Source: Saccostrea echinata (taxonomy: Eukaryota). Taken from it: DNA of 64,000 bases. Numbering within the stretch: position 1 is the first letter of the stretch; each line of letters begins with the position of its first letter. Both the position numbers and the translations under genes were made by a program. The notes under the pieces are model-generated. The model saw only the letters and a program-made list of their open reading frames with translations. It did no database searches and was not told where the DNA came from. The stretch is from positions 5,456,001 through 5,520,000 of the forward strand of contig NW_026889809.1 in the NCBI RefSeq assembly GCF_033153115.1, in the 5' to 3' direction. Positions 19,601-56,375 of this stretch are shown here, piece after piece.

Positions 19601-22600
19601 ATATTGTAAATGCTATCTTGTGATCTACTGAACATAAGGAGCTGTAACTGGGAAGAAAGCCCAAGTATTTCTTTACGTGGTTATAAGGACCTTAAGCTTA
19701 AAAAAATTGAAATAAAAAAAAAAAGCTTCAAGATTTGAATGAACAGTTACCACTAGAATAGTAAGAACATACCCTAACAAAATACTTTAGTAAACAAAAG
19801 TTTACTATAGTTAGCTATGATATCCTTATATAGTTTTAACTGTACTAAATCAAAGTATTTTCCAACGAAATTCAAATTGTTAATTTTCATTTTCTCATTC
19901 ATATTCTTTCACGCTTACGTCTGATATTTAAAGGAAATATAAAATGTGTATTCCCATTGAGTTTCCAAAATTTACATAATTGGTATGGATTTTTTTCGAA
20001 TAAACTTTTGGGGTAAAGTTTCATAGTTAATTAATGTATTCCACCCGTAACAGCCTTGAGCTCAGATTCAATAAAATTGAATGAACAACAGATATGTAAG
20101 GATATATATGGATTGTATACTCAATATATTTAGAAATAAATTCAATATTTTACTATTAGAATGTAAGAATAGAATGTGTCCTAATGAATGACCTTAACCT
20201 GTTCTTGAAGAGTTATCTCCTTGGAGTTGAATCAAGAAGCTACTTCGCAGTAGCTAAGTACTTTGTTACTACCTTGAAAATACGGATATATATTTAATTT
20301 ATAATAAATATATTATAATATACCGTATAAAAACTAATGAAAATGAAATCAAATCCGTAAAATGTATACAAAACTTGAGTGCGTTTTTAGATGAAAACCT
20401 AAATTTCAAAGAACATGTAAACAGGAAATGTCGTACAACAATGTTAAATTATCTAAGGATTAAATGTGTTCGAAAATATTGAACAAAGGAACCTACGGAA
20501 ATTTTGGTTTTATCATTAGTTATTTAATATTTAGACCATTGCAATGTTATTTTTTTTAGTACAGCACAATGCGAAATTCAGAATATATGTGCCAAGTTTG
20601 TATTAAATAGGAGAGAATTTGACAGTTCGAAAGGAGCTCTCTTTGATCTCAACTGGCTAGTTATAAAATCTAAGATATCAGTGAAAATTCTGACATTTAT
20701 GTATAACTGTTCAGTGGGCCAAGCACGAGAATATTTAACTTAACTTTTGCCAAAACAAACTTCAAATAAAAAATTGCATAAAAGAAAAACTTTCAGTTTT
20801 AGTACCAGCGGACCAAATTTGTGGACACTTTTGCATATTAAGCAATCAAAATCTATTGATGATTTCAAAAACAACTTAAAAACTTACTTCTTTAGAGACT
20901 TTCATGCTTTATTTTAATAATGACTCTACAATGTACATTTGTATACGTATATATCATATATAAATATCTTACAGTTTTATTGCCATTGAATACGTTTATG
21001 TAAAAATAGGCATTTAAACATAAAATCAGTTTCAGTAATTTCTGTGAAAAAAAAAATAAAAAAAATAATTTCAAAATTAAGGATTTTCTCCCTCATGCAT
21101 AGCTGTGATCCTTCAACGTAATTGGCTCCAGTCTTTGGCACCCCCTTTTTTCAGCTCTTTCAAGTTTTTTTTTATTATTTGAATTTTACGGATTTTCAAC
21201 GTTTCGGCATGAGCATCACTGAAGAGACATAATTTGTCGCATCTGGTGCATCAAAATTGGTACCGTATAAGACTTACATCCATTTTAATAAATCCGGAAA
21301 TCTGGAAAAATATCATTTTCAAGCTTTATTCTAATCCTAATGATTAAAGGCATCTATCCACCATAGCATTTATTGATATTCCTAGTATTTATATTTTTAT
21401 TTTTAAAGAATTTGTTTATCCTATAGATTTCAACGTATTCTTCTTTGATTAATTACTACTTACTAAATTACTTTAAAAAAATATTTTGGTAATACTCTTC
21501 TTCCCCAAAATACTTTAAATTAATACGGCTATATTTTATATGTAACGGATTCTTAATGATAGACAATGAAGTCCTATTAGGGGAACAAATCTAAGTATTA
21601 GTAGTAGCTAACTATAATATCTATGAGATCTATCTATAATGCATCGTAGTTAAGTATAATATCTATAGTTAACTATAGTAATTCTTTGTTTGGGATCTAT
21701 ACAATCTATATTCTAAGACGAATTCACGTTGTTTTTTAATATACAATTCACTTATTTTGTCTCGATATTAAACTTAATTTATGGTAACCGGCTATAGAAA
21801 TATATGATACGTAAAAAAAGAGAGATGTGGACCTTAATGCTCACTTTAAAAAATGCATGTCTGTCTCTTTCTATCCCTTTATGTAACCTGTATTAAGGAC
21901 AACATACTGTCTATATGTTTGAAAAATTGTAGTCTTTTTTTATTTGGATGTCAGCATATTTCTGTTTAATTCTTAGATCCCTTTTCTGCTCCTTCAACCC
22001 AACCCTCAGGTTAAGGGTGAGGATCACGAGAAAGGTGGTCGTGATGACATCGATCCAATTGAAAAAAGATGTTATTTTTATTTTGTTTATTCATATGTAA
22101 ACTTTTAACTTAAACTGTGGTCCCATTTCTAAGATTATGATTTAGATAGATTAAAATCTGCCCAACGTGAAAGTAGATTTATCTTAATAAAACTTCTCTC
22201 TTGTATCAAGGAGACTGTAAAACATTTTCTTTAATTTGAGGTACACAGAAATTATCTGCAATGTTTTCTTTTCAACACACTCTAGCAAACATGTCTGGAA
22301 AAAAATACATATATGCAATTAAATTAAGATTTCTTTTCAACAGAAGAAGGTGGCGGTCTTAGGATTAATAGTCATCATATTTAGAGGTACACAATCATTT
22401 CTTTTTTCTAAAAGATTAATGTCTGAAATCACCAAGTAAGAGAGTACTACCTAATGATCCTTAAATATGAATTCCGTTCATGAGGAGGTATTTGTACATA
22501 AAAATTTTATACATTTTCAATTCAGTCGTACAACCATATAAACGAGTATGCTACTTCACCAACTGGGCACAATACAGAACTGCTCCTATGACCTTCAAAG

Positions 22601-25600
22601 CGGATGATGTGGATCCTTTCCTCTGCACTCATATCATGTACGCTTTCGGTAAAGTCGTGGGCAACACAATCGATGCTTATGAGTGGAACGACAAGGGCAC
22701 CGGTGGTAAGTAACACGTCACCTAGGCCATTGTAGGTAGAATATAGATCATTTTCGGTAACGTGTCAGGTATTCAAGCTCTCGAGGCGACAAAAAAAACA
22801 CTGATGCCTTGCTTGGATTCGTTTGTACTCACATGTTGGACTATTCTCAATGCAGGCCAATACGAGAAGATAATGAACCTGCGATCCGTGAACCCAGACC
22901 TCAAGATCCTGCTGGCCATAGGTGGATGGACTCACGGCACCGCGCCCTTCACTGCCGTGGTAGATGACCCCAATGACATGGCAGCTTTTGCAAACAACGC
23001 CTTGGCCTACTTAAAAACTTACGGATTCGACGGTCTGGATCTGGACTGGGAGTATCCGGGTGGTAATGGAAGCCCTCCAGAGGACAAACAGCGTTTCACG
23101 TCTTTTGTGCAGGTCAGTATAACAAAAACTTCCGTTCCAGGGCAGCTGTATCAAGTCCACAGATCTTGCCACAAGGCTCCCACTATGTCTGTCTTCTCTT
23201 TCAGAAACTTCGCCAAGTGTTTGACGCTGATGGTGTAGCCAACAACCGCGCGCCTCTGTTACTGACGGCAGCTGTTGCAGCTGGCAAAAGTACAATCGAC
23301 AAAGCCTATGAAATTGACCTCATCTCCAAGTAAGTTGCATTCTGGCTGTGCCGGGTGCCTGATTTGCCAAGTGCACTCATGAGTTATTTTATTTCTTCTT
23401 CTGTATTTCAGAGAGCTAGATTTCATCAACCTAATGAGCTACGATCTTCATGGAAGCTGGGAAGCAACCACCGGACATCACAGTGCGCTATTTGGCCGTG
23501 CCGGTGAAGTTGGAACTGCTGCATATATGAATGTGGTAGGTTTGTCAGTTCGGGTATGATTTCCTCGCTAATAGATCTTTTGAATGTACTTGCCTCGCAT
23601 CTTTCATTCATTATTTGCGCAGGATTACGCGGTGAACTACTGGATTAATCTCGGTGCACCTCCAGAAAAACTGGTTTTGGGAATGGGTTTGTATGGCAGA
23701 TCCTTCACCCTCTCTAGTTCAAGTAATACAGGAGTAGGAGCGCCCGCCGTAGGAGCAGGAGCGGCTGGAACGTATACTGGAGAAGCAGGGTTGTTGGCCT
23801 ATTACGAGGCATGTAACGTTTTCCAGTCATTTCAATTAAGAAGTCACTTTTGCTGATCTAACAATTTGAACTCGAATGATTATAGCATTCGAAAAAAAAA
23901 AGAAGAGTACTCATCATTTTTACTAAGATCGGATCAAATGTTGCAGGTGTGTTATAATTTGAAATACAATGGTTGGACAAGACAGTGGCACGGTGAGCAC
24001 AAGGTACCGTATGCGTATCACGGTACCCAGTGGATTGGATATGACGACACAGAGAGTTTCCAAGTAAAGGTAAGCTTAAAGGGGAGAAGTGTCTAGGCCT
24101 AAGCTCCGATACAGTTACACAGCTTGCAATCCCACTGATGAATCTGGTCTGTCTAGACTATAATTTTCACTCGTTCTCTCGTTGAAAGGTTGACTACATC
24201 AAGTCCAAAGGACTGGGTGGCGGTATGGTTTGGTCTCTTGATCAAGACGATTTCAGCAACAGCTGTGGCGATGGGGCGTATCCTCTGATGAACTTATTGC
24301 GAAGTGAGCTGTCTGGATCACCTGTAGCTTCCACTCCTTTGCCACCATCATTGCATTCCTCCTCTCAAACTGTGCCATCCTCCTCCACTAGATTACCTAC
24401 CACCATTCCCAGCACTGCAGTGTCGGGATACAAACGAGTATGTTACTTCACCAACTGGGCACAATACAGAACTGCTCCTATGACCTTCAAAGCGGATGAT
24501 GTGGATCCTTTCCTCTGCACTCATATCATGTACGCTTTCGGTAAAGTCGTGGGCAACACAATCGATGCTTATGAGTGGAACGACAAGGGCACCGGTGGTA
24601 AGTAACACGTCACCTAGGCCATTGTAGGTAGAATATAGATCATTTTTGGTAACGTGTCAGGTATTCAAGCTCTCGAGGCGACAAAAAAAACACTGGTGCC
24701 TTGCTTGGATTCGTTTGTACTCACATGTTGGACTATTCTCAATGCAGGCCAATACGAGAAGATAATGAACCTGCGATCCGTGAACCCAGACCTCAAGATC
24801 CTGCTGGCCATAGGTGGATGGACTCACGGCACCGCGCCCTTCACTGCCGTGGTAGATGACCCCAATGACATGGCAGCTTTTGCAAACAACGCCTTGGCCT
24901 ACTTAAAAACTTACGGATTCGACGGTCTGGATCTGGACTGGGAGTATCCGGGTGGTAATGGAAGCCCTCCAGAGGACAAACAGCGTTTCACGTCTTTTGT
25001 GCAGGTCAGTATAACAAAAACTTCCGTTCCAGGGCAGCTGTATCAAGTCCACAGATCTTGCCACAAGGCTCCCACTATGTCTGTCTTCTCTTTCAGAAAC
25101 TTCGCCAAGTGTTTGACGCTGATGGTGTAGCCAACAACCGCGCGCCTCTGTTACTGACGGCAGCTGTTGCAGCTGGCAAAAGTACAATCGACAAAGCCTA
25201 TGAAATTGACCTCATCTCCAAGTAAGTTGCATTCTGGCTGTGCCGGGTGCCTGATTTGCCAAGTGCACTCATGAGTTATTTTATTTCTTCTTCTGTATTT
25301 CAGAGAGCTAGATTTCATCAACCTAATGAGCTACGATCTTCATGGAAGCTGGGAAGCAACCACCGGACATCACAGTGCGCTATTTGGCCGTGCCGGTGAA
25401 GTTGGAACTGCTGCATATATGAATGTGGTAGGTTTGTCAGTTCGGGTATGATTTCCTCGCTAATAGATCTTTTGAATGTACTTGCCTTGCATCTTTCATT
25501 CATTATTTGCGCAGGATTACGCGGTGAACTACTGGATTAATCTCGGTGCACCTCCAGAAAAACTGGTTTTGGGAATGGGTTTGTATGGCAGATCCTTCAC

Positions 25601-28600
25601 CCTCTCTAGTTCCAGTAATACAGGAGTAGGAGCGCCCGCCGTAGGAGCAGGAGCGGCTGGAACGTATACTGGAGAAGCAGGGTTGTTGGCCTATTACGAG
25701 GCATGTAACGTTTTCCAGTCATTTCAATTAAGAAGTCACTTTTGCTGATCTAACAATTTGAACTCGAATGATTATAGCATTCGAAAAAAAAAAGAAGAGT
25801 ACTCATCATTTTTACTAAGATCGGATCAAATGTTGCAGGTGTGTTATAATTTGAAATACAATGGTTGGACAAGACAGTGGCACGGTGAGCACAAGGTACC
25901 GTATGCGTATCACGGTACCCAGTGGATTGGATATGACGACACAGAGAGTTTCCAAGTAAAGGTAAGCTTAAAGGGGAGAAGTGTCTAGGCCTAAGCTCCG
26001 ATACAGTTACACAGCTTGCAATCCCACTGATGAATCTGGTCTGTCTAGACTATAATTTTCACTCGTCCTCTCGTTGATAGGTTGACTACATCAAGTCCAA
26101 AGGACTGGGTGGCGGTATGGTTTGGTCTCTTGATCAAGACGATTTCAGCAACAGCTGTGGCGATGGGGCGTATCCTCTGATGAACTTATTGCGAAGTGAG
26201 CTGTCTGGATCACCTGTAGCTTCCACTCCTTTGCCACCATCATTGCATTCCTCCTCTCAAACTGTGCCATCCTCCTCCACTAGATTACCTACCACCATTC
26301 CCAGCACTGCAGTGTCGGGATACAAACGAGTATGTTACTTCACCAACTGGGCACAATACAGAACTGCTCCTATGACCTTCAAAGCGGATGATGTGGATCC
26401 TTTCCTCTGCACTCATATCATGTACGCTTTCGGTAAAGTCGTGGGCAACACAATCGATGCTTATGAGTGGAACGACAAGGGCACCGGTGGTAAGTAACAC
26501 GTCACCTAGGCCATTGTAGGTAGAATATAGATCATTTTCGGTAACGTGTCAGGTATTCAAGCTCTCGAGGCGACAAAAAAAACACTGGTGCCTTGCTTGG
26601 ATTCGTTTGTACTCACATGTTGGACTATTCTCAATGCAGGCCAATACGAGAAGATAATGAACCTGCGATCCGTGAACCCAGACCTCAAGATCCTGCTGGC
26701 CATAGGTGGATGGACTCACGGCACCGCGCCCTTCACTGCCGTGGTAGATGACCCCAATGACATGGCAGCTTTTGCAAACAACGCCTTGGCCTACTTAAAA
26801 ACTTACGGATTCGACGGTCTGGATCTGGACTGGGAGTATCCGGGTGGTAATGGAAGCCCTCCAGAGGACAAACAGCGTTTCACGTCTTTTGTGCAGGTCA
26901 GTATAACAAAAACTTCCGTTCCAGGGCAGCTGTATCAAGTCCACAGATCTTGCCACAAGGCTCCCACTATGTCTGTCTTCTCTTTCAGAAACTTCGCCAA
27001 GTGTTTGACGCTGATGGTGTAGCCAACAACCGCGCGCCTCTGTTACTGACGGCAGCTGTTGCAGCTGGCAAAAGTACAATCGACAAAGCCTATGAAATTG
27101 ACCTCATCTCCAAGTAAGTTGCATTCTGGCTGTGCCGGGTGCCTGATTTGCCAAGTGCACTCATGAGTTATTTTATTTCTTCTTCTGTATTTCAGAGAGC
27201 TAGATTTCATCAACCTAATGAGCTACGATCTTCATGGAAGCTGGGAAGCAACCACCGGACATCACAGTGCGCTATTTGGCCGTGCCGGTGAAGTTGGAAC
27301 TGCTGCATATATGAATGTGGTAGGTTTGTCAGTTCGGGTATGATTTCCTCGCTAATAGATCTTTTGAATGTACTTGCCTCGCATCTTTCATTCATTATTT
27401 GCGCAGGATTACGCGGTGAACTACTGGATTAATCTCGGTGCACCTCCAGAAAAACTGGTTTTGGGAATGGGTTTGTATGGCAGATCCTTCACCCTCTCTA
27501 GTTCCAGTAATACAGGAGTAGGAGCGCCCGCCGTAGGAGCAGGAGCGGCTGGAACGTATACTGGAGAAGCAGGGTTGTTGGCCTATTACGAGGCATGTAA
27601 CGTTTTCCAGTCATTTCAATTAAGAAGTCACTTTTGCTGATCTAACAATTTGAACTCGAATGATTATAGCATTCGAAAAAAAAAAGAAGAGTACTCATCA
27701 TTTTTACTAAGATCGGATCAAATGTTGCAGGTGTGTTATAATTTGAAATACAATGGTTGGACAAGACAGTGGCACGGTGAGCACAAGGTACCGTATGCGT
27801 ATCACGGTACCCAGTGGATTGGATATGACGACACAGAGAGTTTCCAAGTAAAGGTAAGCTTAAAGGGGAGAAGTGTCTAGGCCTAAGCTCCGATACAGTT
27901 ACACAGCTTGCAATCCCACTGATGAATCTGGTCTGTCTAGACTATAATTTTCACTCGTCCTCTCGTTGATAGGTTGACTACATCAAGTCCAAAGGACTGG
28001 GTGGCGGTATGGTTTGGTCTCTTGATCAAGACGATTTCAGCAACAGCTGTGGCGATGGGGCGTATCCTCTGATGAACTTATTGCGAAGTGAGCTGTCTGG
28101 ATCACCTGTAGCTTCCACTCCTTTGCCACCATCATTGCATTCCTCCTCTCAAACTGTGCCATCCTCCTCCACTAGATTACCTACCACCATTCCCAGCACT
28201 GCAGTGTCGGGATACAAACGAGTATGTTACTTCACCAACTGGGCACAATACAGAACTGCTCCTATGACCTTCAAAGCGGATGATGTGGATCCTTTCCTCT
28301 GCACTCATATCATGTACGCTTTCGGTAAAGTCGTGGGCAACACAATCGATGCTTATGAGTGGAACGACAAGGGCACCGGTGGTAAGTAACACGTCACCTA
28401 GGCCATTGTAGGTAGAATATAGATCATTTTCGGTAACGTGTCAGGTATTCAAGCTCTCGAGGCGACAAAAAAAACACTGGTGCCTTGCTTGGATTCGTTT
28501 GTACTCACATGTTGGACTATTCTCAATGCAGGCCAATACGAGAAGATAATGAACCTGCGATCCGTGAACCCAGACCTCAAGATCCTGCTGGCCATAGGTG

Positions 28601-31600
28601 GATGGACTCACGGCACCGCGCCCTTCACTGCCGTGGTAGATGACCCCAATGACATGGCAGCTTTTGCAAACAACGCCTTGGCCTACTTAAAAACTTACGG
28701 ATTCGACGGTCTGGATCTGGACTGGGAGTATCCGGGTGGTAATGGAAGCCCTCCAGAGGACAAACAGCGTTTCACGTCTTTTGTGCAGGTCAGTATAACA
28801 AAAACTTCCGTTCCAGGGCAGCTGTATCAAGTCCACAGATCTTGCCACAAGGCTCCCACTATGTCTGTCTTCTCTTTCAGAAACTTCGCCAAGTGTTTGA
28901 CGCTGATGGTGTAGCCAACAACCGCGCGCCTCTGTTACTGACGGCAGCTGTTGCAGCTGGCAAAAGTACAATCGACAAAGCCTATGAAATTGACCTCATC
29001 TCCAAGTAAGTTGCATTCTGGCTGTGCCGGGTGCCTGATTTGCCAAGTGCACTCATGAGTTATTTTATTTCTTCTTCTGTATTTCAGAGAGCTAGATTTC
29101 ATCAACCTAATGAGCTACGATCTTCATGGAAGCTGGGAAGCAACCACCGGACATCACAGTGCGCTATTTGGCCGTGCCGGTGAAGTTGGAACTGCTGCAT
29201 ATATGAATGTGGTAGGTTTGTCAGTTCGGGTATGATTTCCTCGCTAATAGATCTTTTGAATGTACTTGCCTCGCATCTTTCATTCATTATTTGCGCAGGA
29301 TTACGCGGTGAACTACTGGATTAATCTCGGTGCACCTCCAGAAAAACTGGTTTTGGGAATGGGTTTGTATGGCAGATCCTTCACCCTCTCTAGTTCAAGT
29401 AATACAGGAGTAGGAGCGCCCGCCGTAGGAGCAGGAGCGGCTGGAACGTATACTGGAGAAGCAGGGTTGTTGGCCTATTACGAGGCATGTAACGTTTTCC
29501 AGTCATTTCAATTAAGAAGTCACTTTTGCTGATCTAACAATTTGAACTCGAATGATTATAGCATTCGAAAAAAAAAAGAAGAGTACTCATCATTTTTACT
29601 AAGATCGGATCAAATGTTGCAGGTGTGTTATAATTTGAAATACAATGGTTGGACAAGACAGTGGCACGGTGAGCACAAGGTACCGTATGCGTATCACGGT
29701 ACCCAGTGGATTGGATATGACGACACAGAGAGTTTCCAAGTAAAGGTAAGCTTAAAGGGGAGAAGTGTCTAGGCCTAAGCTCCGATACAGTTACACAGCT
29801 TGCAATCCCACTGATGAATCTGGTCTGTCTAGACTATAATTTTCACTCGTTCTCTCGTTGAAAGGTTGACTACATCAAGTCCAAAGGACTGGGTGGCGGT
29901 ATGGTTTGGTCTCTTGATCAAGACGATTTCAGCAACAGCTGTGGCGATGGGGCGTATCCTCTGATGAACTTATTGCGAAGTGAGCTGTCTGGATCACCTG
30001 TAGCTTCCACTCCTTTGCCACCATCATTGCATTCCTCCTCTCAAACTGTGCCATCCTCCTCCACTAGATTACCTACCACCATTCCCAGCACTGCAGTGTC
30101 GGGATACAAACGAGTATGTTACTTCACCAACTGGGCACAATACAGAACTGCTCCTATGACCTTCAAAGCGGATGATGTGGATCCTTTCCTCTGCACTCAT
30201 ATCATGTACGCTTTCGGTAAAGTCGTGGGCAACACAATCGATGCTTATGAGTGGAACGACAAGGGCACCGGTGGTAAGTAACACGTCACCTAGGCCATTG
30301 TAGGTAGAATATAGATCATTTTTGGTAACGTGTCAGGTATTCAAGCTCTCGAGGCGACAAAAAAAACACTGGTGCCTTGCTTGGATTCGTTTGTACTCAC
30401 ATGTTGGACTATTCTCAATGCAGGCCAATACGAGAAGATAATGAACCTGCGATCCGTGAACCCAGACCTCAAGATCCTGCTGGCCATAGGTGGATGGACT
30501 CACGGCACCGCGCCCTTCACTGCCGTGGTAGATGACCCCAATGACATGGCAGCTTTTGCAAACAACGCCTTGGCCTACTTAAAAACTTACGGATTCGACG
30601 GTCTGGATCTGGACTGGGAGTATCCGGGTGGTAATGGAAGCCCTCCAGAGGACAAACAGCGTTTCACGTCTTTTGTGCAGGTCAGTATAACAAAAACTTC
30701 CGTTCCAGGGCAGCTGTATCAAGTCCACAGATCTTGCCACAAGGCTCCCACTATGTCTGTCTTCTCTTTCAGAAACTTCGCCAAGTGTTTGACGCTGATG
30801 GTGTAGCCAACAACCGCGCGCCTCTGTTACTGACGGCAGCTGTTGCAGCTGGCAAAAGTACAATCGACAAAGCCTATGAAATTGACCTCATCTCCAAGTA
30901 AGTTGCATTCTGGCTGTGCCGGGTGCCTGATTTGCCAAGTGCACTCATGAGTTATTTTATTTCTTCTTCTGTATTTCAGAGAGCTAGATTTCATCAACCT
31001 AATGAGCTACGATCTTCATGGAAGCTGGGAAGCAACCACCGGACATCACAGTGCGCTATTTGGCCGTGCCGGTGAAGTTGGAACTGCTGCATATATGAAT
31101 GTGGTAGGTTTGTCAGTTCGGGTATGATTTCCTCGCTAATAGATCTTTTGAATGTACTTGCCTTGCATCTTTCATTCATTATTTGCGCAGGATTACGCGG
31201 TGAACTACTGGATTAATCTCGGTGCACCTCCAGAAAAACTGGTTTTGGGAATGGGTTTGTATGGCAGATCCTTCACCCTCTCTAGTTCCAGTAATACAGG
31301 AGTAGGAGCGCCCGCCGTAGGAGCAGGAGCGGCTGGAACGTATACTGGAGAAGCAGGGTTGTTGGCCTATTACGAGGCATGTAACGTTTTCCAGTCATTT
31401 CAATTAAGAAGTCACTTTTGCTGATCTAACAATTTGAACTCGAATGATTATAGCATTCGAAAAAAAAAAGAAGAGTACTCATCATTTTTACTAAGATCGG
31501 ATCAAATGTTGCAGGTGTGTTATAATTTGAAATACAATGGTTGGACAAGACAGTGGCACGGTGAGCACAAGGTACCGTATGCGTATCACGGTACCCAGTG

Positions 31601-34600
31601 GATTGGATATGACGACACAGAGAGTTTCCAAGTAAAGGTAAGCTTAAAGGGGAGAAGTGTCTAGGCCTAAGCTCCGATACAGTTACACAGCTTGCAATCC
31701 CACTGATGAATCTGGTCTGTCTAGACTATAATTTTCACTCGTCCTCTCGTTGATAGGTTGACTACATCAAGTCCAAAGGACTGGGTGGCGGTATGGTTTG
31801 GTCTCTTGATCAAGACGATTTCAGCAACAGCTGTGGCGATGGGGCGTATCCTCTGATGAACTTATTGCGAAGTGAGCTGTCTGGATCACCTGTAGCTTCC
31901 ACTCCTTTGCCACCATCATTGCATTCCTCCTCTCAAACTGTGCCATCCTCCTCCACTAGATTACCTACCACCATTCCCAGCACTGCAGTGTCGGGATACA
32001 AACGAGTATGTTACTTCACCAACTGGGCACAATACAGAACTGCTCCTATGACCTTCAAAGCGGATGATGTGGATCCTTTCCTCTGCACTCATATCATGTA
32101 CGCTTTCGGTAAAGTCGTGGGCAACACAATCGATGCTTATGAGTGGAACGACAAGGGCACCGGTGGTAAGTAACACGTCACCTAGGCCATTGTAGGTAGA
32201 ATATAGATCATTTTCGGTAACGTGTCAGGTATTCAAGCTCTCGAGGCGACAAAAAAAACACTGGTGCCTTGCTTGGATTCGTTTGTACTCACATGTTGGA
32301 CTATTCTCAATGCAGGCCAATACGAGAAGATAATGAACCTGCGATCCGTGAACCCAGACCTCAAGATCCTGCTGGCCATAGGTGGATGGACTCACGGCAC
32401 CGCGCCCTTCACTGCCGTGGTAGATGACCCCAATGACATGGCAGCTTTTGCAAACAACGCCTTGGCCTACTTAAAAACTTACGGATTCGACGGTCTGGAT
32501 CTGGACTGGGAGTATCCGGGTGGTAATGGAAGCCCTCCAGAGGACAAACAGCGTTTCACGTCTTTTGTGCAGGTCAGTATAACAAAAACTTCCGTTCCAG
32601 GGCAGCTGTATCAAGTCCACAGATCTTGCCACAAGGCTCCCACTATGTCTGTCTTCTCTTTCAGAAACTTCGCCAAGTGTTTGACGCTGATGGTGTAGCC
32701 AACAACCGCGCGCCTCTGTTACTGACGGCAGCTGTTGCAGCTGGCAAAAGTACAATCGACAAAGCCTATGAAATTGACCTCATCTCCAAGTAAGTTGCAT
32801 TCTGGCTGTGCCGGGTGCCTGATTTGCCAAGTGCACTCATGAGTTATTTTATTTCTTCTTCTGTATTTCAGAGAGCTAGATTTCATCAACCTAATGAGCT
32901 ACGATCTTCATGGAAGCTGGGAAGCAACCACCGGACATCACAGTGCGCTATTTGGCCGTGCCGGTGAAGTTGGAACTGCTGCATATATGAATGTGGTAGG
33001 TTTGTCAGTTCGGGTATGATTTCCTCGCTAATAGATCTTTTGAATGTACTTGCCTCGCATCTTTCATTCATTATTTGCGCAGGATTACGCGGTGAACTAC
33101 TGGATTAATCTCGGTGCACCTCCAGAAAAACTGGTTTTGGGAATGGGTTTGTATGGCAGATCCTTCACCCTCTCTAGTTCCAGTAATACAGGAGTAGGAG
33201 CGCCCGCCGTAGGAGCAGGAGCGGCTGGAACGTATACTGGAGAAGCAGGGTTGTTGGCCTATTACGAGGCATGTAACGTTTTCCAGTCATTTCAATTAAG
33301 AAGTCACTTTTGCTGATCTAACAATTTGAACTCGAATGATTATAGCATTCGAAAAAAAAAAGAAGAGTACTCATCATTTTTACTAAGATCGGATCAAATG
33401 TTGCAGGTGTGTTATAATTTGAAATACAATGGTTGGACAAGACAGTGGCACGGTGAGCACAAGGTACCGTATGCGTATCACGGTACCCAGTGGATTGGAT
33501 ATGACGACACAGAGAGTTTCCAAGTAAAGGTAAGCTTAAAGGGGAGAAGTGTCTAGGCCTAAGCTCCGATACAGTTACACAGCTTGCAATCCCACTGATG
33601 AATCTGGTCTGTCTAGACTATAATTTTCACTCGTCCTCTCGTTGATAGGTTGACTACATCAAGTCCAAAGGACTGGGTGGCGGTATGGTTTGGTCTCTTG
33701 ATCAAGACGATTTCAGCAACAGCTGTGGCGATGGGGCGTATCCTCTGATGAACTTATTGCGAAGTGAGCTGTCTGGATCACCTGTAGCTTCCACTCCTTT
33801 GCCACCATCATTGCATTCCTCCTCTCAAACTGTGCCATCCTCCTCCACTAGATTACCTACCACCATTCCCAGCACTGCAGTGTCGGGATACAAACGAGTA
33901 TGTTACTTCACCAACTGGGCACAATACAGAACTGCTCCTATGACCTTCAAAGCGGATGATGTGGATCCTTTCCTCTGCACTCATATCATGTACGCTTTCG
34001 GTAAAGTCGTGGGCAACACAATCGATGCTTATGAGTGGAACGACAAGGGCACCGGTGGTAAGTAACACGTCACCTAGGCCATTGTAGGTAGAATATAGAT
34101 CATTTTCGGTAACGTGTCAGGTATTCAAGCTCTCGAGGCGACAAAAAAAACACTGGTGCCTTGCTTGGATTCGTTTGTACTCACATGTTGGACTATTCTC
34201 AATGCAGGCCAATACGAGAAGATAATGAACCTGCGATCCGTGAACCCAGACCTCAAGATCCTGCTGGCCATAGGTGGATGGACTCACGGCACCGCGCCCT
34301 TCACTGCCGTGGTAGATGACCCCAATGACATGGCAGCTTTTGCAAACAACGCCTTGGCCTACTTAAAAACTTACGGATTCGACGGTCTGGATCTGGACTG
34401 GGAGTATCCGGGTGGTAATGGAAGCCCTCCAGAGGACAAACAGCGTTTCACGTCTTTTGTGCAGGTCAGTATAACAAAAACTTCCGTTCCAGGGCAGCTG
34501 TATCAAGTCCACAGATCTTGCCACAAGGCTCCCACTATGTCTGTCTTCTCTTTCAGAAACTTCGCCAAGTGTTTGACGCTGATGGTGTAGCCAACAACCG

Positions 34601-37600
34601 CGCGCCTCTGTTACTGACGGCAGCTGTTGCAGCTGGCAAAAGTACAATCGACAAAGCCTATGAAATTGACCTCATCTCCAAGTAAGTTGCATTCTGGCTG
34701 TGCCGGGTGCCTGATTTGCCAAGTGCACTCATGAGTTATTTTATTTCTTCTTCTGTATTTCAGAGAGCTAGATTTCATCAACCTAATGAGCTACGATCTT
34801 CATGGAAGCTGGGAAGCAACCACCGGACATCACAGTGCGCTATTTGGCCGTGCCGGTGAAGTTGGAACTGCTGCATATATGAATGTGGTAGGTTTGTCAG
34901 TTCGGGTATGATTTCCTCGCTAATAGATCTTTTGAATGTACTTGCCTCGCATCTTTCATTCATTATTTGCGCAGGATTACGCGGTGAACTACTGGATTAA
35001 TCTCGGTGCACCTCCAGAAAAACTGGTTTTGGGAATGGGTTTGTATGGCAGATCCTTCACCCTCTCTAGTTCCAGTAATACAGGAGTAGGAGCGCCCGCC
35101 GTAGGAGCAGGAGCGGCTGGAACGTATACTGGAGAAGCAGGGTTGTTGGCCTATTACGAGGCATGTAACGTTTTCCAGTCATTTCAATTAAGAAGTCACT
35201 TTTGCTGATCTAACAATTTGAACTCGAATGATTATAGCATTCGAAAAAAAAAAGAAGAGTACTCATCATTTTTACTAAGATCGGATCAAATGTTGCAGGT
35301 GTGTTATAATTTGAAATACAATGGTTGGACAAGACAGTGGCACGGTGAGCACAAGGTACCGTATGCGTATCACGGTACCCAGTGGATTGGATATGACGAC
35401 ACAGAGAGTTTCCAAGTAAAGGTAAGCTTAAAGGGGAGAAGTGTCTAGGCCTAAGCTCCGATACAGTTACACAGCTTGCAATCCCACTGATGAATCTGGT
35501 CTGTCTAGACTATAATTTTCACTCGTCCTCTCGTTGATAGGTTGACTACATCAAGTCCAAAGGACTGGGTGGCGGTATGGTTTGGTCTCTTGATCAAGAC
35601 GATTTCAGCAACAGCTGTGGCGATGGGGCGTATCCTCTGATGAACTTATTGCGAAGTGAGCTGTCTGGATCACCTGTAGCTTCCACTCCTTTGCCACCAT
35701 CATTGCATTCCTCCTCTCAAACTGTGCCATCCTCCTCCACTAGATTACCTACCACCATTCCCAGCACTGCAGTGTCGGGATACAAACGAGTATGTTACTT
35801 CACCAACTGGGCACAATACAGAACTGCTCCTATGACCTTCAAAGCGGATGATGTGGATCCTTTCCTCTGCACTCATATCATGTACGCTTTCGGTAAAGTC
35901 GTGGGCAACACAATCGATGCTTATGAGTGGAACGACAAGGGCACCGGTGGTAAGTAACACGTCACCTAGGCCATTGTAGGTAGAATATAGATCATTTTCG
36001 GTAACGTGTCAGGTATTCAAGCTCTCGAGGCGACAAAAAAAACACTGGTGCCTTGCTTGGATTCGTTTGTACTCACATGTTGGACTATTCTCAATGCAGG
36101 CCAATACGAGAAGATAATGAACCTGCGATCCGTGAACCCAGACCTCAAGATCCTGCTGGCCATAGGTGGATGGACTCACGGCACCGCGCCCTTCACTGCC
36201 GTGGTAGATGACCCCAATGACATGGCAGCTTTTGCAAACAACGCCTTGGCCTACTTAAAAACTTACGGATTCGACGGTCTGGATCTGGACTGGGAGTATC
36301 CGGGTGGTAATGGAAGCCCTCCAGAGGACAAACAGCGTTTCACGTCTTTTGTGCAGGTCAGTATAACAAAAACTTCCGTTCCAGGGCAGCTGTATCAATT
36401 CCACAGATCTTGCCACAAGGCTCCCACTATGTCTGTCTTCTCTTTCAGAAACTTCGCCAAGTGTTTGACGCTGATGGTGTAGCCAACAACCGCGCGCCTC
36501 TGTTACTGACGGCAGCTGTTGCAGCTGGCAAAAGTACAATCGACAAAGCCTATGAAATTGACCTCATCTCCAAGTAAGTTGCATTCTGGCTGTGCCGGGT
36601 GCCTGATTTGCCAAGTGCACTCATGAGTTATTTTATTTCTTCTTCTGTATTTCAGAGAGCTAGATTTCATCAACCTAATGAGCTACGATCTTCATGGAAG
36701 CTGGGAAGCAACCACCGGACATCACAGTGCGCTATTTGGCCGTGCCGGTGAAGTTGGAACTGCTGCATATATGAATGTGGTAGGTTTGTCAGTTCGGGTA
36801 TGATTTCCTCGCTAATAGATCTTTTGAATGTACTTGCCTCGCATCTTTCATTCATTATTTGCGCAGGATTACGCGGTGAACTACTGGATTAATCTCGGTG
36901 CACCTCCAGAAAAACTGGTTTTGGGAATGGGTTTGTATGGCAGATCCTTCACCCTCTCTAGTTCCAGTAATACAGGAGTAGGAGCGCCCGCCGTAGGAGC
37001 AGGAGCGGCTGGAACGTATACTGGAGAAGCAGGGTTGTTGGCCTATTACGAGGCATGTAACGTTTTCCAGTCATTTCAATTAAGAAGTCACTTTTGCTGA
37101 TCTAACAATTTGAACTCGAATGATTATAGCATTCGAAAAAAAAAAAGAAGAGTACTCATCATTTTTACTAAGATCGGATCAAATGTTGCAGGTGTGTTAT
37201 AATTTGAAATACAATGGTTGGACAAGACAGTGGCACGGTGAGCACAAGGTACCGTATGCGTATCACGGTACCCAGTGGATTGGATATGACGACACAGAGA
37301 GTTTCCAAGTAAAGGTAAGCTTAAAGGGGAGAAGTGTCTAGGCCTAAGCTCCGATACAGTTACACAGCTTGCAATCCCACTGATGAATCTGGTCTGTCTA
37401 GACTATAATTTTCACTCGTCCTCTCGTTGATAGGTTGACTACATCAAGTCCAAAGGACTGGGTGGCGGTATGGTTTGGTCTCTTGATCAAGACGATTTCA
37501 GCAACAGCTGTGGCGATGGGGCGTATCCTCTGATGAACTTATTGCGAAGTGAGCTGTCTGGATCACCTGTAGCTTCCACTCCTTTGCCACCATCATTGCA

Positions 37601-40600
37601 TTCCTCCTCTCAAACTGTGCCATCCTCCTCCACTAGATTACCTACCACCATTCCCAGCACTGCAGTGTCGGGATACAAACGAGTATGTTACTTCACCAAC
37701 TGGGCACAATACAGAACTGCTCCTATGACCTTCAAAGCGGATGATGTGGATCCTTTCCTCTGCACTCATATCATGTACGCTTTCGGTAAAGTCGTGGGCA
37801 ACACAATCGATGCTTATGAGTGGAACGACAAGGGCACCGGTGGTAAGTAACACGTCACCTAGGCCATTGTAGGTAGAATATAGATCATTTTCGGTAACGT
37901 GTCAGGTATTCAAGCTCTCGAGGCGACAAAAAAAACACTGGTGCCTTGCTTGGATTCGTTTGTACTCACATGTTGGACTATTCTCAATGCAGGCCAATAC
38001 GAGAAGATAATGAACCTGCGATCCGTGAACCCAGACCTCAAGATCCTGCTGGCCATAGGTGGATGGACTCACGGCACCGCGCCCTTCACTGCCGTGGTAG
38101 ATGACCCCAATGACATGGCAGCTTTTGCAAACAACGCCTTGGCCTACTTAAAAACTTACGGATTCGACGGTCTGGATCTGGACTGGGAGTATCCGGGTGG
38201 TAATGGAAGCCCTCCAGAGGACAAACAGCGTTTCACGTCTTTTGTGCAGGTCAGTATAACAAAAACTTCCGTTCCAGGGCAGCTGTATCAAGTCCACAGA
38301 TCTTGCCACAAGGCTCCCACTATGTCTGTCTTCTCTTTCAGAAACTTCGCCAAGTGTTTGACGCTGATGGTGTAGCCAACAACCGCGCGCCTCTGTTACT
38401 GACGGCAGCTGTTGCAGCTGGCAAAAGTACAATCGACAAAGCCTATGAAATTGACCTCATCTCCAAGTAAGTTGCATTCTGGCTGTGCCGGGTGCCTGAT
38501 TTGCCAAGTGCACTCATGAGTTATTTTATTTCTTCTTCTGTATTTCAGAGAGCTAGATTTCATCAACCTAATGAGCTACGATCTTCATGGAAGCTGGGAA
38601 GCAACCACCGGACATCACAGTGCGCTATTTGGCCGTGCCGGTGAAGTTGGAACTGCTGCATATATGAATGTGGTAGGTTTGTCAGTTCGGGTATGATTTC
38701 CTCGCTAATAGATCTTTTGAATGTACTTGCCTCGCATCTTTCATTCAATATTTGCGCAGGATTACGCGGTGAACTACTGGATTAATCTCGGTGCACCTCC
38801 AGAAAAACTGGTTTTGGGAATGGGTTTGTATGGCAGATCCTTCACCCTCTCTAGTTCCAGTAATACAGGAGTAGGAGCGCCCGCCGTAGGAGCAGGAGCG
38901 GCTGGAACGTATACTGGAGAAGCAGGGTTGTTGGCCTATTACGAGGCATGTAACGTTTTCCAGTCATTTCAATTAAGAAGTCACTTTTGCTGATCTAACA
39001 ATTTGAACTCGAATGATTATAGCATTCGAAAAAAAAAAGAAGAGTACTCATCATTTTTACTAAGATCGGATCAAATGTTGCAGGTGTGTTATAATTTGAA
39101 ATACAATGGTTGGACAAGACAGTGGCACGGTGAGCACAAGGTACCGTATGCGTATCACGGTACCCAGTGGATTGGATATGACGACACAGAGAGTTTCCAA
39201 GTAAAGGTAAGCTTAAAGGGGAGAAGTGTCTAGGCCTAAGCTCCGATACAGTTACACAGCTTGCAATCCCACTGATGAATCTGGTCTGTCTAGACTATAA
39301 TTTTCACTCGTCCTCTCGTTGATAGGTTGACTACATCAAGTCCAAAGGACTGGGTGGCGGTATGGTTTGGTCTCTTGATCAAGACGATTTCAGCAACAGC
39401 TGTGGCGATGGGGCGTATCCTCTGATGAACTTATTGCGAAGTGAGCTGTCTGGATCATCTGTAGTATCTTCAATGATACCTTCAACAAACTCTTCGTCTA
39501 AAGTCTTTACTTCATCTCTTCCTCCACAAGATTCAACCGTTGGAACAACTGGATCTTCTAGTTCAAACTATTATGTATCCACAGATATCCAAGTAAACAG
39601 TGAGGGGACAACGCAGTCCCACACAGTTTCAACAGAGATTGTTTATACAACGAAATCGGCTATCTGTGGAGGTAATCGTTATGACTTCTGCTCTTATAAG
39701 ATATAAAAAAAATTCAGAAAAGCATACTGTGTAGATAATATTCAAAGAAATTTTTACAGCACCAAAGTCATGTGTAGATGGTCAATTTTATGAGGACAGC
39801 TGTGACATTCGCAAGTACTACCAGTGTTCGTCTGGTGTTGCATGGCACTACGAGTGTGCTACTGGAACAGTGTGGGATAAACGAATCCAAAATTGTAACT
39901 GGGATTACCTCGTCCTTACTTCGTCTGCACCCTGTGGCTGTGGTCGTAAGTTCAATCATGATGCATATTTTTACTCGTTTATCCAACATGTTTCGAATTT
40001 TCTCGACGAAAAAGTATATGTCAATGGTATATATTTAACAGTTTGTCTTCTAAATTTCAGCTCCATCAGATTGTATTCATGGAAAGTTTTATGAAGACAA
40101 ATGCGATATGAAACTTTACTACCAATGTGCACATGGTATTCCTTATCCATATGAATGCCATCCTGGAACTCTTTGGGATGTAACAATTACTAATTGTAAT
40201 TGGGAGTATGCAGTAGCCAGCAGAACACTCCCGACTGGATCAGATTGCAGCAGTTATGGTACAACTCATTTACCTGGTCAGCAGACTACTGTTCCATCTA
40301 CACAGACCCAAAAGCAAATTTCTGAAAAGACTTCCCAGCACACAGAACATTCAACTTCTGATTCCACGAATAGAGATTTCTCAACTGTGAAAGTCTCCAC
40401 TTCCTCAAGCACACACACACCGTCTGCTGATCAAACTATAGCCAAAACTCAATCAACCGAAATACCTCCTGCCTCTCAGTCATACACATCCGTAACACTT
40501 GTGTCAACAAGCCAGGTTACTACACTCCAGTCAAGCATATTCACTAAGCAACCCATTGTTTCTTCGACCTTTTTATCTACATCTTCCCCAAAAAGTGAAA

Positions 40601-41434
40601 CTCAAACTAAGGAACAATCCAGGACTTCGTCTCTCTTTACTACAACAGATGGTCCTGTATCACTATCCCGGCAACAAACAACATCATTCCGTACTGTCCC
40701 CACTGATCAGACACAAACCCGTCAACAAGCTACAACGCCTTCCTATATTGCCACTACAGGCCGCACATCATCAAAAATTCAGCACCAAACAACTACGGAT
40801 CTCACTTCGTTACAAACTCACCAAAATACAGCAACTTTGTCATCTGTTACCACAACAGATGGCACACGAACAAGCCATCAGCAGACATCAATGTTGCCCA
40901 ATGTTGCTTCTACAAATGGCTCAGTATCTCAAGTAGAAAAACAGATAACATCATCCCCTGTTGCAACAACAAATGGCGCACTTTCTCAAGTTCAACAACA
41001 GACAACAACATCGCACCATACTGTCACCACGAATGACTCAATATCACAGGCTCAACAACAGTCTACCGCACAAACCCAAACGACAACCGCTTGTGGACGT
41101 GAGTTATACTCTAGGAAATATTACCCGTTTTTATTTTCGACCAAACATATTTGAAACGCTCAGTCCTTTAAAAAAATGAATTTTTCACAATAAATTAATG
41201 CAACTTTTTAAAATAAAGTGAGTATTATTAAATTTAACAACCAAAGAAGGGTTGTTGAATTTTCAACGCATCCAGTATACTTTTTAATGTACATTTACTC
41301 ATTATTACCCTTTATTTTCAGCTCCTGACACTTGTCCATTTCCGGCTTGGGATTCTGGAAGCACAACTATGACGTCACACTATCTTCTAATTCCTTTAGG
41401 AGTTCTATTAGCATTTATTTTCTCATATTTATAG
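16615..41434 (+). CDS. Giant multi-domain GH18 chitinase: signal peptide + 9 x GH18 catalytic domains + 2 x CBM14 + Ser/Thr stalk + GPI-type C-terminus (~4171 aa, ~60 coding exons)
   Basis: Exons: 16615-16617 (ATG, least certain), 22344-22386, 22526-22705. Per unit (unit 1 coordinates, add 1892 each, +1 from within unit 8): 22856-23112, 23205-23329, 23412-23535, 23623-23808, 23947-24069, 24189-24597. Terminal exons: 39326-39671, 39760-39945, 40061-41098, 41322-41434. All phases match. Motifs per unit: [30 protein letters not shown] (intact DxDxE), [46 protein letters not shown]-terminus [19 protein letters not shown]. Confidence 0.88.
16700..19200 (+). mobile_element. Decayed non-LTR retrotransposon (LINE) ORF2 remnant in the presumed first intron of the chitinase
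   Basis: From ~17585: [36 protein letters not shown](fs)LD, later [21 protein letters not shown] (RT motifs). Many stops and frameshifts. Boundaries are approximate. Confidence 0.75.
20360..21030 (+). mobile_element. 5'-truncated L2/CR1-type LINE 3' fragment
   Basis: [56 protein letters not shown]... to [12 protein letters not shown], typical post-RT C-terminal region. Confidence 0.7.
21080..21280 (+). mobile_element. Penelope-type terminal-repeat fragment with a degenerate hammerhead-like core
   Basis: CTCCCTCATGCATAGCT...GAGCATCACTGAAGAGACATAATTTGTCGCATCTGGTGCATCAAAATTGGTACCGTATAA. CTGAAGA and the GACA/TGTC stem are present, GAAA is absent. The family is recognised from memory. Confidence 0.45.
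22537..39464 (+). repeat. Intragenic tandem array: 9 units of 1892 bp (exons and introns), >99% identical
   Basis: Domain starts at 22537, 24429, 26321, 28213, 30105, 31997, 33889, 35781 and 37674. The ORF track repeats with the same period. I found only a handful of intronic or synonymous differences by eye. Confidence 0.98.
39760..40250 (+). other. Two CBM14 (peritrophin-A type) chitin-binding domains of the chitinase
   Basis: [45 protein letters not shown] and [45 protein letters not shown]. Cys spacing and aromatic residues fit CBM14. Confidence 0.85.
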
Positions 41435-43803: not shown

Positions 43804-46603
43804 AACAAGAGGCCCAAGGGCCTTAACGGTCACCTGAGTATAATGTAATGATCCATAGATTAAAACAAAATAAGCTGATAAATAAAGCTTTGTTTTCCAA
43901 AAGCAAGAGAAATAGGATGATCAGGGATCAGAAAAATATTAATTTAGTACTCCATAACAAATCTTAAAGTTGATCTATTTATTTGCCTGTACTTTCCCCA
44001 TTTGTCACTATCCTCATGCGGACAAACAAAACAATAGTTCTAGAGCACTATTAGTTAACACAATTCACCCCCCCCCCCCCTGCACTGGCCTCTCTTGATC
44101 TTTAAAGATTATATATTGTACAAAGATATGATAATTTTGTCCCATTTTCATTTATCTATTATTTAAAAGTTTACCTGACCATTAAAAACTATGAAAGTAC
44201 TTTTGTATTAAATATTATAAAATTTCTTGTATAATTCTGTTATTCAATTGACCTTTTAAGTTACATTATTTACAGTGATTAACTATTATATGTGAATAGC
44301 AAAGGGGAATAACTTCTTTCAGTAGAAATAAATAAATTGACCAAAGGGTACAGAATTTCAAACTTTGGTAAAAACATCCCTGTTTATTACAACTTTGTAT
44401 ACTTTATTTGCCTCCTTCATGCCCAGGAGCAGAGAAGATTTTCAAGGAAATAATCAATTTTCACTATAGATTCAATATAGCCCCACGCTAACACCAATGC
44501 CCCTGACCCAGGGGCCAAGATATTCACAATTTTGGAAGCTGCACTCTTGCTCATTATAACCATGTACATAGTATGTTTCCTTAATAACAATGGGCAAAGA
44601 ACAAGATTTTCAAAGAAATAATGCATTTCTACTATATATTCAAAAGAGCCTCACCCTAACACCAAAATCCCTGACCCCGTGGCTATGTATTTTAACTTTT
44701 AAGAAAAGTTTTCCTTGCTCGTCATAACCATGCAATTAGTTTTTCTGTTAATTACCCCGGGGCAGAGAAGATTTTCAACAAAAAATTGCATTACACTATA
44801 CATTTAATAGACCCCCCCCCCCAAAACATGAACCCCTGGGGCCACAAATTTCACAATTTTGGAAGAGGCATCCTTAATCAACATAAATATGCACTTAATA
44901 GAACCCCTCCCTAACACCAGAACCACTGACCCAGGGACCAAGATATACATAATTTTGAAAGAGATGTCCTTGCTCATCATAACTATATACTTCGATTATC
45001 TGCTAAATATCTAGGAGCAGAGAAGAAGATTTTAAAAGAAATAATGCACTTTCACTATGTAATCAATAGTGCCACCCCCTCCCCTCCCTCGCAGAACCCT
45101 TCACCCTGGGGCCACAAATTTCACAATTTTGGAAGAGGCACCCTTGATCATCATAACTATATATTCGGTTTATCCGCTTAATACCTAGGAGCACAGAAGA
45201 AGATTTTTAAAGAAATAATGCACTTTCACTATATAATCAATAGAGACCCCCCTTCCCGCTGAACCCTCACCCTGGGGCCACAAATTTCACAATTTTGGAA
45301 GAGGCACTATTGATCATCATAACCATTCACTTAGTTTATCTGCTTAATATACAGAGGGAGAGAATAAGATTTTTAAAGAATTTATGCATTTTCGCTATTT
45401 GATCAATAGAGCCCCACCCTAACACCAGAACCCCTGATCCAGGGGCCAAGATATTCACAATTTTGGAAGATGTGACCTTGCTCATAATAACTATATACTT
45501 GGTTTATCTGCTAAATACCTAGGAACACAGAAGAAGATTTTTTTAAAGAAATAATGCACTTTCACAATATAATGAATAGAACCCTCCGTCCCACAGAACC
45601 CCTCACCCTGGGGCCACAAATTTCACATTGATCATCATTACCATATACCTAGTTTATCTTCTTTATATACAGTGGGAGAGAAGAAGGTTTTTAAAGAATT
45701 TATGCATTTTCACTATATAATCAATAGAGCCCCGCCCTAACACTCGAACCCCAGACCCAAGGACCATGAAATTCATAATTTTAGAAGAGGCATCCTTCTT
45801 TATTATAACTATCGACTTAATACACCGACTTAATACCCAGGAGCAGAGAAGAAGATTTTCAAAGAAGTAATGCATTTTCACTATATTACCATTAGAGCCC
45901 CGCCCTAACACCAGAACCCCTAATCCAGGGGCCATGAAATTCACAATTTTAGAAGAGGCACCCCTCCTCATCATAACTATAATTTAGTTCATCGGCTTAA
46001 TACCCAGGACCAGAGGAAAAGATTTTCAAAGAATTAATGCATTTTCACTATATTATCATTAGAGCCCCGCTCCAACACCAGTACCCCTGACCCAGGGGCC
46101 TTGAAATTCACAATTTTAAAAGAGACCCCCCCCCCTTCATCATAACTATGTACTTAGTTCGTCGGCTAAATACCCAGGAGCAGAGGAGAAGATTTTTAAA
46201 GAATTAATGCATTTTCACTATATAATCATTAGAGCCCCGCCCTAGCGCCAGAACCCCTGACCTGGGGCCATAAATTTCACAATTTTGGTAGAGGACTCAA
46301 TGCTTATTACAATCATGCAAACAGTTTGACTGCTTGATGTCCAGGAGTAAAGAAGAAGATTTTTAAAGATTGCATTAATTTTAGTGGTTTGGCCCCATCC
46401 CTCAGGCCCCAGGGGGGTAGGGACCATGAAATTCACAAACTTTGTCCCCCTTCACCCATAGATGCTATATGCCAAAATTGGTTGAAAATGGTTGTGCGGT
46501 TTCAGAAAAGAAGCTGAAAATGTTCTAATGTTAAAGCACGATGCACGCCGACGGAGACGAAAACGGATGGCAATAGGTCACCTGAGTAAACTCAGGTGAC
46601 CTA
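43804..46603 (+). mobile_element. Helentron-associated element (HINE) carrying a ~166-180-bp satellite array
   Basis: Start AACAAGAGGCCCAAGGGCCTTAACGGTCACCTGAGT. About 12 diverged repeats (CCAGGGGCCATGAAATTCACAATTTT..AGAAGATTTT) at 44350-46450. End hairpin TAGGTCACCTGAGT-AA-ACTCAGGTGACCTA (46574-46603) matches the subterminal repeat. Confidence 0.85.
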
Positions 46604-55738: not shown

Positions 55739-56375
55739 AACAAGAGGCCCATGGGCCATAATGCTCACCTGAGTAAATTTGGCCCTGCTGTTCTTCACCT
55801 GATTTCCTCCCATGTAATACCTATTGTGACCCTGTCCTACCCCCAGGGGTCATGAATTGAATTTAGAATCTACACTACCCCAGGATGCTTTCACTTAAGT
55901 TTCAGCTTTTCTGGCCCAGTGGTTCTTGAGAAGAAGATTTTTAAAGATTTTTCCTATATATTTTAATGTAAAACTTAGATTCCTTAATGTGACCTCACCC
56001 TACCCCCAGGGGCCATGATTTGAACAAATTAGAATCTACACTACCCCAGGCTGCTTCCACATAAGTTTCAGCTTTTCTGGCCCAGTGGTTCTTGAGAGGA
56101 AGATTTTTTAAAGATTTTTCCTATACATCTCAATGTAAAAATTGAAATCCTCATTGTAGCCTTGCCCTAACCCCAGGGGTCATGATTTGAACAATCTAGA
56201 TTCTTCAGTACCCCAGGATGCTTCCACATAAGTTTCAGCTTTTCTGGCCAATTGGTTCTTGAGAAGAAGATTTTTTAATGACCCCATCCTATTTTTTTTC
56301 TTGATTATCTCCCCTTGGAAGGGGGCTTGGTCCTTTATTTTAATAATTTAACCCCCCTTCACCCAAGGATGCTTT
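55739..56375 (+). mobile_element. Truncated HINE with ~166-bp satellite (Cg170/HindIII-like) units
   Basis: Start AACAAGAGGCCCATGGGCCATAATGCTCACCTGAGT, then three units CCCCAGGGGCCATGATTTGAACAAATTAGAATCTACACTACCCCAGG..TTCTTGAGAAGAAGATTTTT. The 3' hairpin is missing. Confidence 0.8.

Follow-up and report, generated by a model that had tools for sequence, protein, structure and literature searches.

The kringle IV type-2 (KIV-2) variable number tandem repeat (VNTR) of LPA, one of the systems closest to the locus described here, consists of a 5.6-kb non-catalytic kringle unit present in 1–40 copies (PMC11462820). Chitinases with several catalytic domains in one chain are also on record. Arthropod group II enzymes (Cht10) combine 4–5 GH18 domains and CBM14 modules in one polypeptide (PMC5827449), the insect group III enzyme OfChtIII has two catalytic domains and illustrates that linked domains need not act synergistically (PMC5786006), and the oyster protein Ca-Chit has two catalytic domains, a Thr-rich region and a C-terminal anchor (PMC4457423). 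Tandem GH18 sequences have been treated as separate genes in a molluscan survey (PMC7560691). Here we describe an array of GH18 chitinase units in a stretch of 64,000 nucleotides (the window) from Saccostrea echinata (NCBI RefSeq assembly GCF_033153115.1, contig NW_026889809.1, here C60, positions 5,456,001–5,520,000, forward strand). Taken as a whole, the evidence moderately favours a single GH18 gene with nine units in the window and seven in a second copy, the array having passed through a recent three-unit unequal exchange.

The oyster array resembles the KIV-2 VNTR in its intron-bearing coding unit of multi-kilobase scale, in the near identity of the copies, in a number that depends on the allele and in rare variants that define unit haplotypes (PMC11462820). 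Its units are head-to-tail, 1,892 bp long, frame-keeping and composed of exons and introns, and their number is nine versus seven on two contigs that are very probably allelic. Unlike KIV-2, the unit is a complete enzyme domain, and homogenised arrays occur across oyster genera and in scallops. The domains of group II chitinases are diverged (31–74% identity in the five-domain insect examples), in part inactive, and interleaved with CBM14. In the oyster, by contrast, identical domains follow one another directly, there are more of them and their number varies, and CBM14 comes only after the array; group II membership was rejected, as no diverged, interleaved domains are present. OfChtIII and Ca-Chit, the latter comparable at the family level, likewise place several catalytic domains in one chain, but just two. 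Multi-domain chitinases as such were already known; the open-access literature, supplements excluded, yielded no account of this array or of a copy-variable homogenised multi-domain chitinase. The triplet of units is an ordinary footprint of unequal exchange, and the notable part is a copy-variable, concertedly evolving enzyme hidden by annotation. Concerted evolution of a polyprotein is familiar from polyubiquitin; unlike in that case, no processing site is evident in the oyster chain.

Nine chitinase units in one reading frame

The gene model comprises the following features.

21781..21783, +: likely start codon (ATG then GT) that closes a short first exon; nearest of nine such ATG-GT candidates upstream of the signal-peptide exon, weakly placed
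22344..22386, +: signal-peptide exon (14 residues, not shown); occurs once, before unit 1 only, and is similar to the N-terminal end of P0136, the Magallana orthologue
22526..39457, +: array of nine units, starting at 22552, 24444, 26336, 28228, 30120, 32012, 33904, 35796 and 37689
23809..23946, +: 138-bp GC-AG intron, repeated in every unit; matches a 138-base skip in a relative's RNA contig (X9)
24189..24597, +: fused 409-bp exon with the GH18 end, the linker (about 24322–24427) and the start of the next GH18; crossed by a relative's spliced RNA contig (X8)
39760..40215 (right end approximate), +: two CBM14 chitin-binding domains, in exon 39760–39945 and the start of exon 40061–41098, Pfam PF01607 E 9e-10 and 1e-06; RNA joints in X8 and X9
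40216..41098, +: Ser/Thr/Gln-rich mucin-like stalk, from the translation
41322..41434, +: last coding exon with small residues, a spacer and a hydrophobic end, stop TAG at 41432; joint 41098–41322 in X8

The nine head-to-tail units extend from about 22,526/22,540 to 39,457. Each 1,892-bp unit is interrupted by six introns and has 1,224 coding bases; the 408 amino acids encoded make up one GH18 domain together with a Pro/Ser/Thr linker. One exon joins the end of a GH18 to this linker and to the beginning of the GH18 that follows, the frame stays open across all nine units, and between the units of the window array neither a stop, a promoter nor intergenic space was found. The single reading frame predicts a product of 4,171 amino acids and about 453 kDa, with a signal peptide, nine GH18 domains, two CBM14 domains, a Ser/Thr stalk and a hydrophobic tail, in this order. 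The start exon and the anchor are parts of this model that we infer. The C-terminal pattern, judged by eye from the translation rather than by a predictor, resembles a glycosylphosphatidylinositol (GPI) signal, and the tail is likely to be such an anchor signal.

Protein P0011, identical to the unit, matches PF00704 with an E-value of 6e-104 (348.6 bits against a cut-off of 29.6), and the catalytic motif DGLDLDWE (DxxDxDxE with its Glu) is intact in all nine units; a Pfam domain above cut-off together with this motif places the units among predicted active GH18 chitinases. The best-matching solved structure is human chitotriosidase (E 3.5e-131). One exon of the gene matches, at 100% identity, proteins that carry the label Saccostrea echinata. 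Introns within the array have 41% GC versus 25–29% in the four other measured introns of the gene, which, as a comparison within this gene, is consistent with GC-biased conversion.

A 254-bp unit probe gave 16 matches in the genome, nine on C60 and seven on a second contig, C34, and CBM14 (3′) exons were located in exactly two places, at these same two arrays. The C34 array has seven units and a predicted product of 3,355 amino acids. It is colinear with the window, with 0.34–0.48% substitutions in five flank stretches, plus insertions.

Variants within and between the arrays

Alignment of the nine window units left exactly nine variable columns over their shared length, and the units differ from one another by about 0.15%. 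The positions that matter for what follows are these.

23721..25488, +: first copy of the five-allele block (units 1–2), from the alignment of units
29397..31164, +: second copy of the five-allele block (units 4–5), from the alignment of units
22805..29396, +: stretch identical to 28481–35072 (offset of three units, 6,592 bp), an identity run
24186 (unit 1) and 29862 (unit 4), +: variant at acceptor position −3, AAG for TAG, from the intron model

Five minor alleles are present twice, 5,676 bp apart (A at 23721/29397, T at 24175/29851, A at 24186/29862, T at 24647/30323 and T at 25488/31164). A reading made earlier from the sequence alone had reported them in these places and in no other unit, which the alignment bore out base for base; the four private variants it had listed were all recovered too, as A at 22804, T at 36399, one A more in the run that lies at 37136 and A at 38748. 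Eight of the nine columns are intronic and 23721 is a synonymous third position of a Ser codon. The variant at 24175/29851 sits at acceptor position −14; that at 24186/29862 changes TAG to AAG at position −3 and is therefore intronic, yet not certainly neutral. The shared pairs all fall at an offset of three units (five of five, with none at the other seven offsets). Under independent placement of five pairs a single common offset has a probability of 0.001, and the five shared alleles therefore record one copying event.

NBPF Olduvai triplets are higher-order units in a coding array, that is, stable repeats of three diverged monomers; unlike them, the oyster triplet reflects one copying event, and the units involved are nearly identical. 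A stable higher-order repeat of Olduvai or alpha-satellite type was rejected for the window, as the monomers are barely diverged (about 0.15%), the triplet occurs only twice and C34 shows an offset of two instead.

None of the five shared window alleles was found on C34, which has its own shared alleles, four pairs at an offset of two units. Four intronic sites separate all nine window units from all seven C34 units, and no minor allele is common to both arrays. These fixed differences, with C34 alleles present in seven of seven units there and in none of the nine window units, together with the lack of the shared alleles on C34, exclude haplotype mixing as the source of the triplet, which the sequence-only reading had kept as an alternative. 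Per 1,770 columns, mean differences are 2.6 and 2.4 within the arrays versus 6.9 between them, so that each array has been homogenised separately since the haplotypes split. Four variants swept all units after that split, which offers a dated view of array turnover. The C34 units carry three amino-acid changes, none of them in DGLDLDWE, whereas the window units carry none; the statement that all variants are intronic or synonymous thus holds for the window but not for the second copy. Over both arrays the substitutions comprise 9 intronic, 2 synonymous and 3 non-synonymous ones, while about two thirds of the unit is coding; this spectrum suggests purifying selection.

The two arrays also differ in an intron A-run (window 23892–23904 and equivalents), where the interrupting G is an A in seven of seven C34 units and the run length ranges from 10 to 14. 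The interrupted run of the window varies in just one unit. Slippage or read error would account for such variation.

As to the nature of the copying event, we regard a three-unit duplication as quite probable. Identity at the three-unit offset extends over 22,805–29,396, that is 6,592 bp, and a clean tandem duplication requires 5,676 bp. If a duplication took place, its junction lies in 22805–23720 / 28481–29396. The partners, if any, were likely both window-type chromatids, either sisters or two chromosomes of the same haplotype, because every unit on either side of the junction has window-type alleles. The proposal that the array grew from six to nine units by one three-unit unequal crossover stands in part: one event and a sufficiently long run were found, but a conversion tract of at least 1.8 kb gives the same pattern and the starting number belongs to one of several histories. 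Six to nine follows only if identical sisters exchanged, the data fixing just the six units of the right-hand donor. An earlier one-unit duplication step is compatible as well, units 5–7 holding an identical run of 3,344 bp that is long enough for it.

The strongest competitor, which we nevertheless consider doubtful, is one long gene conversion (1.8–6.6 kb) that copied the block from units 1–2 onto units 4–5 and left the unit number unchanged. All five shared alleles do fall inside 1,768 bp, short-patch sharing is visible on C34, and the GC-rich introns of the array point to frequent conversion. However, conversion requires the five central units to be otherwise free of variants, and when the four private alleles were placed uniformly in a simulation, such a run appeared in 2.1% of 20,000 trials. 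The tract would also exceed the few hundred bases usual for meiotic conversion, and the unit number demonstrably changes at the locus (nine versus seven). Several points tell against the three-unit duplication in turn. The variants cluster at the array edges, so that the uniform null of the simulation is too kind to duplication. The five alleles cover only 31% of the supposed duplicate, and the comparison of unit 3 with unit 6 is uninformative. On C34 the identity run at the two-unit offset is 2,846 bp long where a clean duplication needs 3,784 bp, and in unit 5 one allele reappears by itself; short conversion therefore acts in the array. Finally, none of 24 sequencing runs searched for the stretch held half of its words.

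The seven-unit copy and a likely inversion

C60 and C34 remain colinear over about 267 kb, up to the point where C60 ends; the final 22 kb or so of C60 are 99.97–100% identical to C34. To the left, homology ends at a roughly 10-kb palindrome lying 33 kb from the array, beyond which the two contigs are unrelated in the stretches sampled. The C34 sequence left of the palindrome reappears inverted at 6.18–6.24 Mb with 93–98% identity, the inverted arms of C34 show no difference in the 3,437 bases compared at the contig end, and 5.7 kb left of the C60 breakpoint match the right end of the C34 segment in inverted orientation. The merging of the arms into 100% identity at the contig end, together with the junction layout, fits a heterozygous inversion. 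C34 appears to switch haplotype internally, so that a single flank is present on it in both allelic forms, one per inverted arm. The layout is likely to reflect a heterozygous inversion that spans about 1.86 Mb and has one array on each of its two arrangements, and the C34 array is very probably the other allele of the window array; domain number is then likely to differ, nine versus seven, within one animal. The earlier view of a macro-VNTR enzyme with polymorphic domain number is supported by this second, most likely allelic copy in the assembly. What speaks against allelism is that the fourth inversion junction was not seen and that two C60 probes left of the breakpoint found no second copy in the genome, so that the assignment rests on graph shape. 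One further long-range synteny probe fell in a transposon.

Should C34 instead hold a paralogue within a recent segmental duplication of about 270 kb, the contrast of nine with seven would lie between loci and reflect no polymorphism. The stop of homology at the palindrome 33 kb left of the array, the unrelated sequence sampled further left and the two C60 probes with no second copy are what such a duplication would have in its favour; we hold it improbable, since both duplicated arms reach 100% identity exactly at the contig end, the mark of a diploid bubble, and the junction layout fits one heterozygous inversion.

Still less probable is an assembly artefact in which three units of a haplotype with six were entered twice. 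The two copies of the block are perfectly identical, and no run matching this animal was among the 24 searched. Yet the assembly resolves single-base differences in individual units and separates two haplotype-specific arrays; a six-unit array (11 kb) should be spannable by accurate long reads, and a false path would presumably need an exact overlap under 920 bp. Haplotype mixing is excluded, as set out above, and even with such an artefact the copies would still differ, six versus seven.

The palindrome at the left breakpoint of the likely inversion occupies C60:5445315–5455532 and C34:4317069–4327882, with a further position at C34 6180651. A 1.7-kb insertion on C34 (4347129–4348846, against window 21833–21838) has near-inverted ends and a TTAA duplication and lies in what is likely the first chitinase intron; it could alter expression of the seven-unit allele. 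Conversely, a 2.4-kb insertion at window positions 572–2941 has no counterpart on C34. Its ends are inverted, it contains tandem repeats of 11/18 bp and it shows a TA target duplication; it is likely a non-autonomous element of Tc1/mariner type.

Annotation, transcripts and related proteins

The public annotation divides the array among distinct chitinase genes of one or two domains, with models of 269–781 amino acids, but this reading is scarcely credible given the single signal-peptide exon, units lacking both stop and intergenic space, several models that end by reading into the GC-AG intron (P0123–P0125 end there), and RNA of relatives, which splices the 138-base intron (X9) and crosses the linker (X8). 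The 967-nt X8 contig runs from the end of one GH18 through the linker into the next GH18 and then splices on; the X9 contig skips the 138-base GC-AG intron. In a different relative, X2, one DNA contig loops back by 1,890 bases. Three introns are confirmed by RNA contigs of X1, a run of the same type, that match the window exactly or almost exactly; the linker is not covered in that run, a point against the single-gene model. Raw RNA run X16 held just 15 reads among 12.8 million, too few for a conclusion. Contig depths are hints only, depth being no copy number: in X5 they are 36.4 for the array, 26.3 for the linker and 13.4 and 10.7 for the 3′ exons, and in X2 about 37 versus 3.9–6.9, hinting at about three and about six units, respectively. 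Some of the 'tandem chitinase genes' counted in bivalve genomes may be split models of one polyprotein. Four tandem GH18 genes are reported as expressed in scallop eyes (PMC7560691); these might be a split model of one such array.

In S. cucullata two domains are one residue apart and share six differences from S. echinata, and pieces from O. edulis are one residue apart from each other and 27 from S. echinata; both species have the same fused junction. Units are closer within a species or haplotype than between them, which by sequence comparison amounts to concerted evolution across oyster genera. A quick tree groups the domains by species and does not settle oyster–scallop orthology. Magallana and Crassostrea models have one GH18 domain, and a fused GH18–linker–GH18 exon of Magallana/Crassostrea type was absent from 15 hits; the single domain of these genera may, on weak evidence, be real. 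The single-domain orthologues P0136, P0135 and P0129 have a GH18 83–85% identical to that of the array and match the array gene in having CBM14 modules, a Ser/Thr stalk and its C-terminal tail. In P0136, P0028 and P0128 of the same genera the CBM14 pair is duplicated rather than the GH18, with four CBM14 domains in P0136. Two clusters encode the same fused exon and agree at 65–70 of 83 residues with all these oysters, which agree at 73–79 among themselves, hinting that the array may be older and was lost in Magallana and Crassostrea.

A domain survey covered 186 fetched proteins of 900 amino acids or more, from the listed top hits (best 120 of 807 and best 120 of 161). Among these top hits, 176 of the 186 were long chitinases with two or more domains, and in four of the 176 (two scallops, a shrimp and a fish) all domains were at least 94% identical. 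The scallop proteins P0195 (Ylistrum, five GH18 domains, period 408 amino acids as in the oyster) and P0216 (Pecten, three GH18 domains, period 402 amino acids) are 99–100% identical internally and have a similar layout, and the shrimp protein P0197 (Palaemon) has five GH18 domains of 94–100% identity. Compared as protein models, the scallop and shrimp proteins are about 54% identical to the oyster orthologue. P0012 is a fish chitinase model with near-identical repeated GH18 domains.

The following course of events would account for the locus. One recent unequal exchange duplicating three units would have left the five shared variants; repeated misaligned exchange and conversion would keep the units near-identical within each haplotype and species while altering their number; and purifying selection would keep the protein fixed. 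The product would be a secreted, likely GPI-anchored chain of identical, predicted-active chitinase domains with two chitin-binding modules and a mucin stalk, in which unit number would set how many catalytic sites each anchor carries and how far they reach beyond the cell surface. The anchor, the activity and whatever unit number may do are what we infer from the model. The two alleles would form a natural series on whether linking identical catalytic domains adds activity, both synergistic and non-synergistic domains being known among insect enzymes. Tentatively, and as a possibility we would not rate as the likelier one, bivalve 'poly-chitinases' could represent an old, overlooked class of surface-anchored enzymes, their identical domains kept homogeneous since before the oyster genera split and perhaps since the oyster–scallop split; domain number would be a heritable dial on chitin-degrading capacity, the inversion 33 kb off would isolate the two arrays and let each evolve as a separate lineage, and annotation would cut the class at its GC-AG intron. 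The numbers behind the dial idea are one domain in Magallana/Crassostrea, roughly 3–6 in relatives (depth hints), and seven and nine in one animal.

Elsewhere, window positions 7768–9090 (+) hold a Gly/Pro/Tyr-rich open frame of 441 codons with 171- and 216-bp internal repeats, which we take to resemble shell-matrix proteins, and another Gly-rich frame lies at L011:2027–3010. Satellite-like arrays occupy window positions 44897–46294, 55836–56278 and 57158–63399, with some repeats about 167 bp long and others of 433 bp that are nested within a period of 1,760 bp.

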